Shown: piece after piece, positions 44,886-50,482 of the stretch
Numbering within the stretch: the first letter of the stretch is position 1
Layout of the letters: each line of letters opens with the position of its first letter
NCBI GenBank assembly: GCA_963675745.2
Contig: CAXXWX010000019.1
Coordinates: 1-64,000 of the forward strand
Length of the DNA: 64,000 nt
Reading direction: 5' to 3'
Source: Phycisphaerae bacterium
GTDB lineage: Bacteria; Planctomycetota; Phycisphaerae; UBA1845; Fen-1342
Translations under genes and position numbers: made by a program
Notes under the pieces: model-generated
The model's input: the letters and a program-made list of their open reading frames with translations, nothing else
Told to the model about the DNA's origin: nothing
Database searches by the model: none

Positions 44886-46946
44886 ATGTCCAAGGCAGAC
44901 ACAATCCTATCGATCGTCAATAACCACCTCGACACCGAGCAATTCAAGCAGCGGCACTGGGAGGGCACGTTTCGGGAATACCTCGACATGGTTGCCCAGG
45001 ACCCGCGCATTGCCCGCAATGCGTTTCAACGCATCTATGACATGATCATGCACTTCGGCACCGACAAGTACAAGCTGATGAAGCAGGATCTGGTCCACTA
45101 CAAGTTCTTCGACGACCCCTTCGAAGAGGGCGCCGATGCTATCTACGGGCTTGACACCGCCATTATGCGCCTCGTCGAGTGCTTCAAGTCCGCCGCCCAC
45201 GGCTACGGCACCGATCACCGTATCCTGCTGTTGCACGGGCCGGTCGGCTCGAGCAAAAGCACCATCGCGCGGCTGTTGAAGAAAGGCCTCGAGTACTACT
45301 CGCGGATCGATGACGGCGCTCTCTACACGTTCGCCTGGAAGGTGGCCGGCGCTGACGGCAAAGTCGATGTCCAGCCCTGCCCGATGCACGAGGACCCGCT
45401 GCGTCTGATCCCGACGGCGGCGCGCAAGGACGTACTGGCTTCGATCAACGCCGACCTGCCCACCGACAAGCAGGTCCGCATCGAAGGCGAGCTCGATCCT
45501 TTCTGCCGCAGGATGTTTCAAGACCTGCTCGTCGAGTACGGCGGCGACTGGCACAAGGTGATGGAGCATATTACCGTTCGCCGCCTGGTGCTCTCGGAAA
45601 AGGACCGCATCGGCGTCGGGACGTTCCAGCCGAAGGACGAGAAAAACCAGGACTCGACCGAGCTGACCGGCGACATCAATTACCGCAAGATCGCCCAGTA
45701 TGGCTCTGACTCAGACCCGCGCGCGTTCAACTTCGATGGTGAGCTGAACATCGCCAACCGCGGGTTGTGCGAGTTCATCGAGGTGCTCAAGCTGGATGTG
45801 GCCTTCCTGTATGACCTGCTCGGCGCGTCGCAGGAGCACACCATCAAGCCGAAGAAGTTCGCGCAGACCGATATCGACGAAGTCATCATCGGCCACACCA
45901 ACGAACCCGAATACAAGAAGCTCCAGAGCAACGAGCTCATGGAGGCGTTCCGCGATCGCACGATCAAGATCGACATCCCGTACAACACGCGTCTGGATGA
46001 CGAAATCAAGATCTACGAGAAGGACTTCGGCAAGGACAAGGTGCGCGGTATCCACATCGCGCCGCACGCCGTCGAGATTGCCGCCATGTGGGCCGTGCTG
46101 ACGCGCCTGGCCGAGCCCAAGAAAGCCGGCCTGACGCTGATGCAGAAACTCAAGCTGTATGGCGGCAAGAGCGTGCCGGGCTTTACCGAGGATTCGGTCA
46201 AGGAGCTGCGCGACGAAGCCCCGCGCGAGGGTATGGACGGCGTCAGCCCGCGCTACATCCAGGACAAGCTATCCAACGCGCTGGTCAGCGAGCAGGCCCA
46301 GCTCGACCGCGGTATCAATCCCTTTATGGTCATGAACGAGCTCGAAAGCGGCCTCGACCACCACAGCCTGATCACCGACGAGGAGCAGAAGAAGCGCTAT
46401 CGCGAATTGCTCAGCGTTGTGCGCGAGGAATACGAGGAAATCCTCAAGACCGAGGTTCAGCGGGCCATCTCCGCCGACGAGGACGCCATCACGCGGCTGT
46501 GCGCGAACTACATCGACAACGTCCGGGCCTATACGCAGCACGAAAAGGTCCGCAACAAGTACACCGGCAAGGACGAGGAGCCGGACGAGCGCCTGATGCG
46601 GGCGATCGAGGAGAAGATCGAGATCGCCGATGCGCGCAAGGACGACTTCCGCCAGGAGATCATGAACTACATCGGCGCGTTGGCCCTCGACGGCAAGAAG
46701 TTCGAGTATCACACCAACGCCCGGCTGCACCGCGCGCTGGAACTCAAGTTGTTCGAAGACTCGCGCGATACGATCAAGTTAAAGAACATCGTTTCAGGCG
46801 TGGTCGACGACGAGACCCAAGCCAAGATCGACGTCGTCAAACAACGCCTGATCAAGTTCTTCGGCTACAACGAGACCAGCGCCACGGACGTGCTGAACTA
46901 CGTCGCCAGCATCTTCGCGCGCGGTGATACGAAGCAGGGGGAGTGA
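44886..46946 (+). CDS. prkA: PrkA/YeaG-family AAA+ serine protein kinase
   Basis: [44 protein letters not shown]. Confidence 0.95.
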
Positions 46947-46950
46947 GGGG

Positions 46951-47017
46951 GGCAGAAGGCAACGAGGCAACCAGGCAACCAGGGAACAGAAGGGAACAAC
47001 AGGCGGCTCGGCAGCCA
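46951..47017 (+). repeat. Short tandem array, left arm (GGCAGAA GGCAACGA GGCAACCA GGCAACCA GGGAACAGAA GGGAACAACA GGCGGCTC GGCAGCCA)
   Basis: Read directly; begins 4 nt after the prkA stop. Confidence 0.85.
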
Positions 47018-47044
47018 GGCGGTGGGCTGAAAGGGGGTGTGGTT

Positions 47045-47428
47045 GTGAGCGCGGAGATTCGGTCGTTTCGGGATCTTGTGGTGTGGCAGAAGGCGATGGA
47101 GTTGTGCCAGGGCGTGTACGGCATATCGCAGCGGTTTCCGCCCGATGAACGGTTCGGCCTGACCTCCCAAGTCCGACGCGCGGCTGTGTCGGTGCCATCG
47201 AACATCGCGGAGGGCTATGGCCGCAAACGCAAGCAGGATTACCTGCGTTTCCTGCATATCGCGCTCGGATCGCTCTGCGAACTTGAGACACAAGTGCTGC
47301 TGGCCATTCGCCTGGAATTCACAGACGACGATTCGGCTGTGCCGATTACGGGTCTGATCCGAGATGTTGATCGCCTGCTGAGCGCGCTGATCCGCTCTCT
47401 GAGCCGAACATACAAGGAGCCCACCTGA
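47045..47428 (+). CDS. Four-helix-bundle protein (23S rRNA intervening-sequence protein / TIGR02436-like family)
   Basis: SFRDLVVWQKAMEL, FPPDERFGLTSQVRRAAVSVPSNIAEGYGR, FLHIALGSLCELETQ. Confidence 0.93.
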   Translation: MSAEIRSFRDLVVWQKAMELCQGVYGISQRFPPDERFGLTSQVRRAAVSVPSNIAEGYGRKRKQDYLRFLHIALGSLCELETQVLLAIRLEFTDDDSAVPITGLIRDVDRLLSALIRSLSRTYKEPT

Positions 47429-47507
47429 GAATGTGTGGCAGAGAACAGCCAATGCGATGGCTACCGCCGACCACTGCCCGAAACGAGCGCACCATGCCGC
47501 GTCGTTT

Positions 47508-47561
47508 TTCTGTTGCCTTGTTGCCTTGTTGCCTTGTTGCCTTCTGTTGCCTTCTGTCGCC
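47508..47561 (-). repeat. Short tandem array, right arm, inverted relative to 46951-47017
   Basis: TTCTGTTGCC TTGTTGCC TTGTTGCC TTGTTGCC TTCTGTTGCC TTCTGTCGCC, ending 10 nt before the yeaH ATG. Confidence 0.9.
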
Positions 47562-47571
47562 TGAGCCGCCC

Positions 47572-48669
47572 ATGATCGCCAAAATCGAAAAAGACCACCA
47601 ACGCTTTCGCCAGATCATAAAAGGCAAGATCCGGAAGGACTTGCGCAAGTTCCTTACGCGCGGCGAGCTCATCGGCAAGGAGGGCAAACATCTCGTCAGC
47701 ATCCCTTTGCCCGGTATTGATCTGCCGCACTTCCGCTACGGCGACAACAAAAACACCGGCGTCGGGCAGGGTGATGGCAAGGCCGGCGAAAAAGTCGATG
47801 GCGAGGGCGAAGGCGGCCTCGGCGGCGACGAGCCAGGAAAGCACATTCTCGAAGTCGATGTCAGCCTCGACGAACTCGCCGACATCCTCGGCGAAGAGCT
47901 CCAGCTCCCGCGCATCGAACCCAAGGGCCGGCACAACATCACCACCACGCGCGAACGCTACTCCAGCATTCGCCAGACCGGACCCGAGTCGCTGCGCCAC
48001 TTCAAACGCACCTTTCGCCGGGCACTGCGACGCATGATCATGACCGGCGCCTACGACCCCGACGACCCCGTCATCGTCTTCGAGCGCGGCGACAAGCAGT
48101 ACCGCAGTTGGAAGACGACCAAAAAGCCACAGTCCAACGCCGTCATCGTCTACATGATGGATGTATCCGGCTCGATGGGGCACGAGCAGAAGGAGCTGGT
48201 GCGGCTCGAAGCGTTCTGGATCGATGCCTGGCTGCGGCGCAATTATGAAGGCATCGAAAGCCGTTATATCGTCCACGACGTGAACGCCGCCGAGGTTGAT
48301 CGCGAGACGTTCTTCCGCATCCGCGAGGATGGCGGCACCAAGATCAGCAGCGCGTTCAAACACGCCCGCGCACTGCTCGACGAGCACTACGCCCCGGACG
48401 AGTGGAATGTCTACCTGTTCCACTTTTCCGACGGCGACAATTCGTCCGAAGCCGACTCGCGCGAGTGTTGCGCGATTCTCAAGGACCACCTGCTGCCGTT
48501 CAGCAACCAGTTCGGCTATTGCCAGGTGGCCAGTGCCTACGGCAGCGGCGCCTTCATCAACGTTCTCCGCGAGCACCTCGCCGACGCCGAAAACATGGTC
48601 ACGACGCGCGTGAACACCAAAGACGATATTCTGGACAGCATCAAGGCGTTTTTTGCGAAGGGGAGGTAG
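47572..48669 (+). CDS. yeaH: YeaH/YhbH (DUF444) vWA-like protein
   Basis: DHQRFRQIIKGKIR, MMDVSGSM, GGTKISSA, YLFHFSDGDN; canonical partner of prkA. Confidence 0.92.
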   Translation: MIAKIEKDHQRFRQIIKGKIRKDLRKFLTRGELIGKEGKHLVSIPLPGIDLPHFRYGDNKNTGVGQGDGKAGEKVDGEGEGGLGGDEPGKHILEVDVSLDELADILGEELQLPRIEPKGRHNITTTRERYSSIRQTGPESLRHFKRTFRRALRRMIMTGAYDPDDPVIVFERGDKQYRSWKTTKKPQSNAVIVYMMDVSGSMGHEQKELVRLEAFWIDAWLRRNYEGIESRYIVHDVNAAEVDRETFFRIREDGGTKISSAFKHARALLDEHYAPDEWNVYLFHFSDGDNSSEADSRECCAILKDHLLPFSNQFGYCQVASAYGSGAFINVLREHLADAENMVTTRVNTKDDILDSIKAFFAKGR

Positions 48670-48810: not shown

Positions 48811-49599
48811 ATGAACGCACAGGCGGCACTAACGATCGATCCGACGCAGAAGTTCCCGCACCTGGACCGGGCGCCGATTGTCGAGGCGGTGATCCACTGG
48901 CGCGCCAGAAGCGAAAAAGCACATCCGCGCGACGAACTGCTGAGGCAACTAAAAGAGAGGCTACCGGGCTACCCCGCAGCGCGATCCCAGCAGGAGATAC
49001 AGTTCGAGACACAGATTGGCCCTGAGGGGGCCGCTCAAGCGCAACGCGCGCGATGGGATGGCTTCCGCTTCGAATCAACGGACCGGCGGCATATCGCGCA
49101 GTTCACGCACAACGGGTTTGTCTTCAGCCGGGTCACGCCTTACGAGGACTGGGACCGCTTCGCCGCTGAGGCCAAGCGGTTGTGGCAAATCCACGTCGAG
49201 TTGGCCCAGCCGTCAGAGATTGAACGACTGGGCGTGCGTTTCATCAATCGCATCGTTCCGATTGACTTGGCCAAGCTGGACGAGATACTCACGCTGCCGC
49301 CGCAATCGCCGAACGGGCTGTCGTTGCCGATCGGGGAATTCCTGCATCGCAATCTGTTCGATGTGCCTGGGCACGCGTATCGCGTTCATGTGATCCAGAC
49401 GAGCCAGCCGCCCGCGCCGCCAGAGACGGACGCGCTCAGCCTCATCCTGGACCTCGACGTGTTCACGACGAAGACCATTGAGTTGGATGATGCGACGTTG
49501 GACGCCCGTTTGTGCGAAATGCGCTGGTTGAAGAACATGGCTTTCTATTCGCTCCTCACCGAGCAGACAATCGAACGATTCAAGGAGGCCAGGCCATGA
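48811..49599 (+). CDS. TIGR04255-family protein
   Basis: GGAGG RBS; PHLDRAPIVEAVI, PYEDWDRF, RLGVRFINRI, LILDLDVF (family recognised from motifs, not from a search). Confidence 0.8.
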   Translation: MNAQAALTIDPTQKFPHLDRAPIVEAVIHWRARSEKAHPRDELLRQLKERLPGYPAARSQQEIQFETQIGPEGAAQAQRARWDGFRFESTDRRHIAQFTHNGFVFSRVTPYEDWDRFAAEAKRLWQIHVELAQPSEIERLGVRFINRIVPIDLAKLDEILTLPPQSPNGLSLPIGEFLHRNLFDVPGHAYRVHVIQTSQPPAPPETDALSLILDLDVFTTKTIELDDATLDARLCEMRWLKNMAFYSLLTEQTIERFKEARP

Positions 49600-50054
49600 G
49601 GGAGGCAGTCATCATTCGCGGCGTCAGCGGTGTGGCCCAATACATCGAAGACGCAACGCGCCGTGACCGCCGCTACCTCCACAAGTCCTCGGCGTTCGGT
49701 ATTCAGAGTGTGCTGCGCGACGAACTTGCTGAGGCTTGGGAAGAGTGCCATCAACCCAATTGGGACGGCTATGATGCATTGCCCGTCTCACGGGATGCGC
49801 TGCGGAACATGTACACGTTCTTGGAGGCAATGCCGCTCGGATTCCCTCGTCCGACGATCGGGGCCGATCCGCATGGTCACCTCTCGGTCGAGTGGTATCG
49901 AAGCCCGCGACGCGTGCTGTCCGTGAGCGTCAGTGACGACGACCTGTTGCACTATGCCGCACTACTTGGCTCCAACAGCACGTGTGGAACTGAGACGTAC
50001 TTCGGCGAGGTTCCCGAGAGCATTCTCAACCTGGTGCGGCGGGTCTACTCATGA
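49596..50054 (+). CDS. Hypothetical protein (NWDGY motif), coupled to the TIGR04255-type gene
   Basis: ATGA overlap at 49596-49599; PNWDGYDALP...DPHGHLSVEW. Confidence 0.75.
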   Translation: MREAVIIRGVSGVAQYIEDATRRDRRYLHKSSAFGIQSVLRDELAEAWEECHQPNWDGYDALPVSRDALRNMYTFLEAMPLGFPRPTIGADPHGHLSVEWYRSPRRVLSVSVSDDDLLHYAALLGSNSTCGTETYFGEVPESILNLVRRVYS

Positions 50055-50482
50055 TCGACTCGCGTAGCGTGCCGGACGTTGAGTCGGACGAGGTACTCGC
50101 CCGGTTCATTCTCTTTAGCAGACACATCCGTAGCAGCGACGACACGATTAGACCCGACGCATTCGTCCCGCATCCCCATGACGAACTCTCTGTGACGCGC
50201 CATCGCGATGCGACGGAGGACGAAGTTTGGGGCGCGGGCAGGGCAGTTGCAGAAATACAGCAACGGACACTGCATGGGCGCGGCGATGTCATCGCTGACA
50301 CCTTCATGAGGCAGGGCCTGGCGACTCAGGCAGCGCCTGTCTTGGGGCATGCCGCCCTGCCGGACAACCCGAACCACGCCAACGTGATCGGCTGGCCAAA
50401 GGACGACAAGGGGCGGCAGAGGTTACTCGCGCTAAGAGTCGCGCAAGAAGCCAATCTGGTTCGACATTCCATTCTGTCGTAA
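50051..50482 (+). CDS. Hypothetical protein, possible ADP-ribosyltransferase/RES-like fold
   Basis: ATGA overlap at 50051-50054; LARF...AF..ELSV.R...NPNHANV pattern. Confidence 0.65.
   Translation: MIDSRSVPDVESDEVLARFILFSRHIRSSDDTIRPDAFVPHPHDELSVTRHRDATEDEVWGAGRAVAEIQQRTLHGRGDVIADTFMRQGLATQAAPVLGHAALPDNPNHANVIGWPKDDKGRQRLLALRVAQEANLVRHSILS

Follow-up and report, generated by a model that had tools for sequence, protein, structure and literature searches.

A four-helix-bundle gene between inverted arrays of short repeats in a prkA-yeaH operon, and its apparent kinship with 23S rRNA intervening sequences

The closest described relatives of the element reported here are the S23p intervening sequences (IVSs) of 23S rRNA in Coxiella burnetii and Leptospira (PMC4990558). 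According to the available text of that source, the Coxiella IVS has a 28-bp terminal stem, which RNase III cleaves in vitro, and GACAGAT heptamers 5' of its S23p ORF; the S23p protein appeared not to be made, and the repeats are treated as a strain polymorphism rather than as a family feature (PMC4990558). Like these IVSs, our element carries a PF05635 gene in sense orientation within the loop of a terminal stem, with heptamer-type repeats near the ORF (units of 8 and 10 nt at our locus and of 7 nt in three relatives with the same insertion site), and these likenesses support the kinship with 23S IVSs suggested by an initial, sequence-only reading of this DNA. Unlike them, the cassettes described here reside in operon mRNAs or in coding sequences, their ORF is under purifying selection and those copies that lie within a gene leave its reading frame open. 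The element lies between prkA and yeaH, outside any 23S rRNA gene, in a 64,000-nt stretch of DNA from a Phycisphaerae bacterium, the whole of which is hereafter called the window.

Heptamer repeats also form arrays elsewhere, as in the cyanobacterial STRR. In Xanthomonas and Nostoc, arrays of GGGAATC, which form 70 inverted pairs in Xcc, have their purine-rich strand after stop codons and the complement before start codons (PMC4692102), and in Beggiatoaceae TAACTGA arrays precede start codons, for which MacGregor proposed a repeat-binding regulator, adding that a repeat-binding protein may be the mobile element (PMC4679880). In their available text, these two papers propose G-quadruplexes or an unknown binding protein, and a term search of that text found no mention of S23 or four-helix-bundle genes. 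Our arrays resemble theirs in having 7-nt units, about four per array, in often forming inverted pairs and in their polarity, and differ in being tied to a four-helix-bundle gene family and in including 8-nt classes. A further comparison is Avd, the accessory protein of diversity-generating retroelements (DGRs), described as a homologous pentameric four-helix-bundle barrel, all five protomers of which take part in binding an RNA stem-loop by way of bases flipped out between them (10.1101/2023.10.23.563531). Unlike Avd, the window protein scores only 25.9 against NF033474, below the cut-off of 80, and unlike in a DGR, its gene is flanked neither by a reverse transcriptase gene nor by a template or variable repeat. 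The available texts of PMC3936711, PMC10053308, PMC8700078 and PMC5524665 mention the family without flanking arrays. We found no published statement linking S23p/PF05635 genes to flanking arrays in a search confined mostly to openly accessible articles, and an earlier mention is possible.

The upstream host gene is prkA (yeaG; 44886..46946, plus strand, as are all features of the locus), which encodes a PrkA-family AAA kinase matching PF08298 and PF06798 above cut-off and whose stop codon lies at the base of the predicted stem. The 5' arm (46945..46999) comprises a G-run and about five purine-rich units of 8 or 10 nt of the GGCAACNA class. The enclosed gene (47045..47428) encodes an S23p-like four-helix-bundle protein of 127 aa; a Shine-Dalgarno-like AAAGGGGG (47030..47037), putative in function, lies 7 nt 5' of its GTG start, and an alternative in-frame GTG start is found at 47039. 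After a spacer within the loop (47429..47504) comes the 3' arm (47505..47561), a pyrimidine-rich reverse complement of the 5' units with four 8-nt and two 10-nt units, and then the downstream host gene yeaH (yhbH, DUF444; 47572..48669; NF003711, 561 bits; PF04285). In profile searches the full-length window protein scored 118.4 bits against TIGR02436 (cut-off 24) and 121.4 bits against PF05635 (cut-off 33.8) and matched no catalytic family. Its closest solved relative is XCC0516 (2GSC; E = 2e-26, residues 8-120), deposited with five chains. PF05635 is the sole family found inside the window arms, and the unit is free of any transposase gene, as the sequence-only reading had held. No cognate transposase was identified either, the near-identical dispersed copies typical of IS elements and MITEs appear to be absent, and the window element contains no nuclease gene of the homing endonuclease kind. 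The locus had no Rfam match at E ≤ 1, and no sigma-70 promoter-like or sense terminator-like sites were found in 46800-47700.

A repeat search recovered an inverted pair at 46938-46991/47508-47561 (54 nt, 80%) and 8-nt direct repeat families on each side of the gene. The arm match described in the sequence-only reading, 46953-46991 against the reverse complement of 47508-47546, was reproduced at 35 of 39 positions, and the array borders it gave were likewise borne out, the 5' array starting at 46951-46953, 4-6 nt past the prkA end at 46946, and the 3' array ending at 47561, 10 nt upstream of the yeaH ATG (47572). That reading also proposed that the arms could pair, in several registers, to give a long stem with the ORF in its loop. 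Folding of 46930-47580 gave −290 kcal/mol (z −4.2, with 0 of 20 shuffles as low) and a predicted stem of ~42 bp around the gene, which includes an unbroken run of 21 bp. Several registers do exist, but one of them (46945-46994/47505-47554) dominates with ~37 of the ~42 expected arm-arm pairs, compared with ~2 each for the registers offset by 8 and 10 nt. The predicted arm duplex has a free energy of −73.4 kcal/mol and alternative duplexes −71.2 and −63.6. Each arm is unstructured when folded singly, the 5' arm alone folding no better than shuffles (z +0.98).

A survey of 40 relatives gave 29 yeaH loci, and no four-helix-bundle match was present at any of them. prkA is adjacent to yeaH in 19 of these loci, the distance between the two ranging over 9-1054 nt (in the three congeners it is 130, 49 and 9 nt), and the empty site that the sequence-only reading had called for was found in all 19. 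Wider searches for the closest homologues found the same junction filled in four other genomes (L031, L033, L037 and L287). Units at this site are of 8 nt in the window and L031 and of 7 nt in L033, L037 and L287; both arms belong to one unit class at every filled site, and arm pairing scores higher within the 7-nt or 8-nt class than across classes. Because four other genomes are filled at this junction with arms matched within each, the insertion appears to be old and patchy and the arms to change together, and we rejected a recent insertion at prkA-yeaH. The window and L031 four-helix-bundle genes differ with pN 0.19 and pS 0.68.

The same-site cassette of L037 also contains an HNH endonuclease gene within its arms (L037:1776-2249; PF01844, E 1e-8), of which L033 retains the initial 60 bases; in L287 that position is taken up by a short, unrelated ORF. 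The window spacer has no detectable homology to the L037 HNH gene (alignment score 20, shuffled mean 20). Other, unrelated inserts occupy the prkA-yeaH gap in L011, L014, L019 and L023, which suggests an insertion-tolerant site; they consist of REP-like palindromes, small ORFs and, in L023, a lone GGGAACA array. Two low-depth joints that skip the cassette, in contigs from two runs of one sample (likeness 85), were considered as evidence of processing and rejected: their intervening letters are not known, and they most likely come from other organisms with an empty site.

Arms were scored across the family by local alignment of 300-nt flanks (score ≥ 30) in 78 of 80 genome loci and 27 of 30 relatives' loci, the rest being dropped for short flanks. 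Inverted arms were present at 61 of the 78 and 23 of the 27, versus 5 and 2 in the direct-orientation control, and other controls gave 0/29 for yeaH genes, 37/520 for mismatched flank pairs and 5/84 for shifted windows. With 74 of 80 further regions added, divergent subfamilies included, inverted arms were found at 146 of 183 loci, with period 7 in 72, period 8 in 69 and a matched length of 4-5 units in 79. An independent metagenome set (13 of 80 without flanks left out) gave 52 of 67, every one of period 7 or 8, against 9 in the direct control. The purine-rich arm leads in 90/94 cases and, in the metagenome set, in 49/52; in L221 and L060 it is the pyrimidine-rich arm that leads. Where long open frames flank the gene on both sides (58 non-dnaE2 loci), both neighbours lie on its strand in 38 cases and both on the opposite strand in 3. 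The proposal of insertion into a conserved operon extends well beyond prkA-yeaH: in a scan of 21 such loci, the pairs found split include gmd-fcl, sdhA-sdhB, gnd-zwf, ubiX-ubiD, lpxA-lpxI and a kinase-regulator pair, and atpG-atpD is split too.

Unit class tracks protein clade across phyla, and a well-supported 21-member clade from five named phyla has AGG(A/G/T)TTCA-like 8-mers wherever arms were scored. As far as sequence comparison goes, this tracking shows that gene and arms are transmitted together; it says nothing on binding. The protein tree mixes phyla (23 changes, minimum 11), and copies occupy unrelated sites in each lineage, number 0-13 per genome and are missing from 10 of 40 relatives. 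At one Flavobacterium site the cassette is present in 9 of 24 alleles, with pN 0.18 versus pS 0.67 over 36 pairs; purifying selection thus acts on the ORF even where the site is inherited vertically. Alleles scored there as empty (L185, L187, L189, L191 and L194) often contain ORF-less hairpins, and L186 holds a decayed cassette. Among copies at the same site, own-arm means lie above cross means (52 vs 40, 37 vs 26 and 70 vs 28), but a copy's own arm outscores all other partners in only 3/5, 4/9 and 9/16. Arms of differing period do not align with each other. Wobble asymmetry on the sense strand, which would point to selection at the RNA level, is weak (G.U 199 vs A.C 166, p 0.09; 51 vs 47 loci). 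Target-site duplication gave no general signal (10/143 loci vs 7.2 expected from shuffles), and a TGAG 4-nt duplication seen around the window arms in a shifted register was rejected as such on this count; there is no fixed end sequence, the arms varying freely between copies.

The present genome (G000) has four paralogues, at prkA-yeaH, at atpG-atpD, inside dnaE2 and on C26. The first three each have their own unit class and inverted arms, so that the comparison of paralogues suggested at the outset found such arms at three of four, the C26 copy having arrays but no inverted pair. This fourth copy (L144; G000:C26:697122-697442, minus strand) has upstream arrays of several classes, a downstream repeat of a different kind and a C-terminal extension. 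Genome-wide, 65 inverted array pairs were found, versus 1 each in reversed and complemented controls, and these merge to 49 short-loop ORF-less hairpin sites with the same unit classes as the cassettes. The sites are mostly intergenic, often immediately 3' of a stop codon; on inspection their loops look unrelated, and the hairpins are thus unlike copies of one miniature element. Many further arrays are unpaired, and the genes that adjoin arrays have no evident common function. MITEs, and REP elements with RAYT, are likewise dispersed ORF-less intergenic hairpins with rarer ORF-bearing partners, and their copies inside genes are tolerated when in frame. The elements here differ from these in that the arms are periodic arrays, the loops unrelated and target duplications absent, and in a partner protein devoid of known catalytic motifs.

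Three array patterns from this genome were matched in 24 of the 30 relatives that carry PF05635 and in 1 of the 10 that lack it, and the array class of the window has 51 matches in this genome and 0 in three congeners, in counts that include cassette arms and come from incomplete genomes of non-independent kin. The match between class and gene is imperfect, since G013 has 216 GAATG-type matches and no cognate-clade gene was found in it. Array loads can be high, with 658 TCAG-type matches in G008 and 150 and 128 matches of two classes in G012. The present genome encodes RNase III and has six Y1 transposase matches, unlinked to the cassette, and four group II-type reverse transcriptase matches, all on contigs other than that of the window; no enzyme that mobilises the cassette was identified, and no GxxExxY nuclease was found in the genome as a partner. 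Three of the reverse transcriptase frames (G000:C7:128376, C26:80903 and C26:611707) have equal scores and 469 codons and are probably copies of one group II intron, and an additional partial frame lies on C16.

Copies inside genes bear on whether the unit is removed from the message. Among 28 dnaE2 loci, 16 have a cassette, one an ORF-less hairpin and 10 neither, and one is unresolved; the paralogue of this genome is L141 (G000:C21:28364-32377, minus strand), and the relatives' loci are L145-L172. All 16 cassettes, of 567-870 nt between fixed motifs, span multiples of three and have no stop in the host frame, despite units of 7 or 8 nt, and their four-helix-bundle ORF is always in the +1 frame relative to dnaE2; arm units, arms and lengths differ among all 16, which form one clade and so are not independent but largely vertical. 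For comparison, 5 of 28 other GC-rich family genes have no stop in this frame, or 2 of 25 once three dnaE2 copies are left out. The single ORF-less dnaE2 hairpin is in frame, as are an ORF-less 8-nt hairpin of about 39 codons in valS (L143:1123-1238; G000:C10:87122-87237) and a 7-nt hairpin within a Ser/Thr kinase-like ORF (G000:C26:635318-635430), none of which has the indifference to phase expected of an intron. The dnaE2 frame is open in 16 of 16, and selection therefore keeps the unspliced message translatable, making splicing or obligate cutting unlikely. Ribosomes appear to read through the intragenic copies in dnaE2 and valS. We accordingly rejected a spliced-intron model. The sequence-only reading had likened the unit to an RNase III-cleaved IVS, but the host frames kept in dnaE2 and valS do not support the idea that it must be taken out of the mRNA. 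Partial cutting by RNase III, or cutting only at intergenic copies, without re-ligation, is possible. The dnaE2 case amounts to a gene overprinted within an in-frame insert of 150-250 residues and kept across a family. The dnaE2 ORF of L141 has more in-frame 8-nt arrays in its 3' part, and second four-helix-bundle copies, whose proteins fall in the dnaE2-embedded clade, lie about 1.3-2 kb from the dnaE2 site in L212, L221 and L225 (G017, G012 and G019).

The best reading of the cassette is as an mRNA-resident form of the S23p-carrying 23S rRNA intervening sequence. The architecture, its recurrence, the matched and co-changing arms, the sense orientation and the presence or absence at given sites belong to a real design that extends across the family and that, as a unit, seems not to have been described before. 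We give about an even chance to the full account, a cross-phylum cassette of a four-helix-bundle gene between inverted 7/8-nt arrays, inserted in sense in operons, in which a predicted stem hides the insertion and a pentamer likely binds the repeats. The cassette would ride on transcription of the host operon, and its arms would fold into a stem in the transcript, bringing the prkA stop and the yeaH start within about 15-25 nt and looping out the gene, so that the insertion is likely to be nearly harmless. The protein would be translated from its own Shine-Dalgarno-like site, and the product, putatively pentameric by homology to the five-chain 2GSC, likely binds the periodic purine-rich arm, which we take as the candidate site of a five-subunit Avd-like ring because the modal 4-5 units fit five subunits. 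From what is generally known of Rho, purine-first polarity would keep C-rich RNA paired past the stop codon and so avoid Rho loading. Ribosomes would read through the unit, or it would be cut at the most, but splicing is not part of this account. Its movement would be rare, by enzymes in trans or occasional cargo such as the HNH gene at the same site in L037, and might leave the ORF-less hairpins behind; against mobility, sites are old and largely vertical. A bolder and more doubtful version, though a possible one, makes the cassette a selfish element of a new class. It would encode nothing but a pentameric, non-catalytic ring that binds RNA and reads a 7/8-nt repeat code, with some five units matching the five subunits; its gene would be hidden in an mRNA stem, and with a borrowed enzyme it would drive the copying or growth of cognate hairpins across the genome; 23S S23p IVSs, bacterial heptamer repeats and the Avd role in DGRs would then have a common origin.

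Other explanations share parts of this evidence. The unit might be an mRNA IVS excised by RNase III, the stem being cut, the prkA-yeaH message split and the four-helix-bundle RNA released, with processing as the purpose of the arms. The Coxiella IVS, with the same ORF family and heptamers, is reported to be cut in its stem by RNase III in vitro (PMC4990558), the enzyme is encoded here, the stem has a 21-bp uninterrupted run and an intergenic cut would leave both host ORFs intact. However, cutting would destroy the dnaE2 and valS messages, yet insertions persist there with the frame open (16/16 in dnaE2 vs 2/25 other GC-rich family genes), and the ORFs here are under purifying selection whereas the Coxiella protein is apparently not made; we judge excision unlikely. 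Inverted arms pair equally on both strands of DNA, and the wobble bias is not significant, which would suit a DNA-level mobile element whose arms act as ssDNA hairpins or recombination ends (through an HUH transposase, HNH cargo or array recombination), the RNA stem being a by-product. The HNH gene within the L037 arms and its remnant in L033, the six Y1 transposase matches and the filled, hairpin-only and empty states seen at one site, in dnaE2 and likewise in Flavobacterium, fit this equally improbable alternative, but it is opposed by the strong sense-orientation bias (38 vs 3), by HNH cargo at only 1 of 160 loci screened, by the absence of target-site duplications and fixed ends and by a protein without a catalytic family match.

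Domestication as a post-transcriptional regulator, the protein being a host RNA-binding factor with dispersed arrays as operators and own-gene arms for autoregulation, would account for the long vertical retention, the low dN/dS and the co-occurrence of arrays with the gene family. Arrays adjoin stop and start codons here as described for Xanthomonas (PMC4692102), and a repeat-binding regulator is what MacGregor proposed for the TAACTGA arrays (PMC4679880). That account is at odds with copies at unrelated sites per lineage, 0-13 per genome and missing in 10/40 relatives, with a tree that mixes phyla and with array-adjacent genes that share no evident function, and we consider its probability low. 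By far the least probable is chance, i.e. slippage repeats that merely happen to lie on both sides of an ordinary gene gained by horizontal transfer: this genome is rich in arrays, many of them unpaired, but about 80% of the family has matched inverted arms, versus 0/29 controls and 7% of mismatched pairs, and these family-wide counts already refute chance unless the control genes are unrepresentative.

The mRNA-resident cassette joins two long-open questions, the role of the S23p/four-helix-bundle family and the origin of bacterial heptamer repeat arrays, to which a link is likely, and makes the arm unit a candidate ligand for each protein clade.

Directly 3' of yeaH, window positions 48811-50482 hold a TIGR04255-family gene and then two unannotated overlapping ORFs and resemble a second sporadic insert. 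At G000:C12:72013-72856, GAATG-type arms surround an antisense ORF that by eye resembles a REP-associated tyrosine transposase; it has its own palindromes and is not among the PF01797 matches. Some hairpin neighbourhoods are near-identical (G000:C2:109632 and C22:3321; C2:118414 and C22:12080), which may reflect duplication or redundancy of the bin (contamination estimate 6%).
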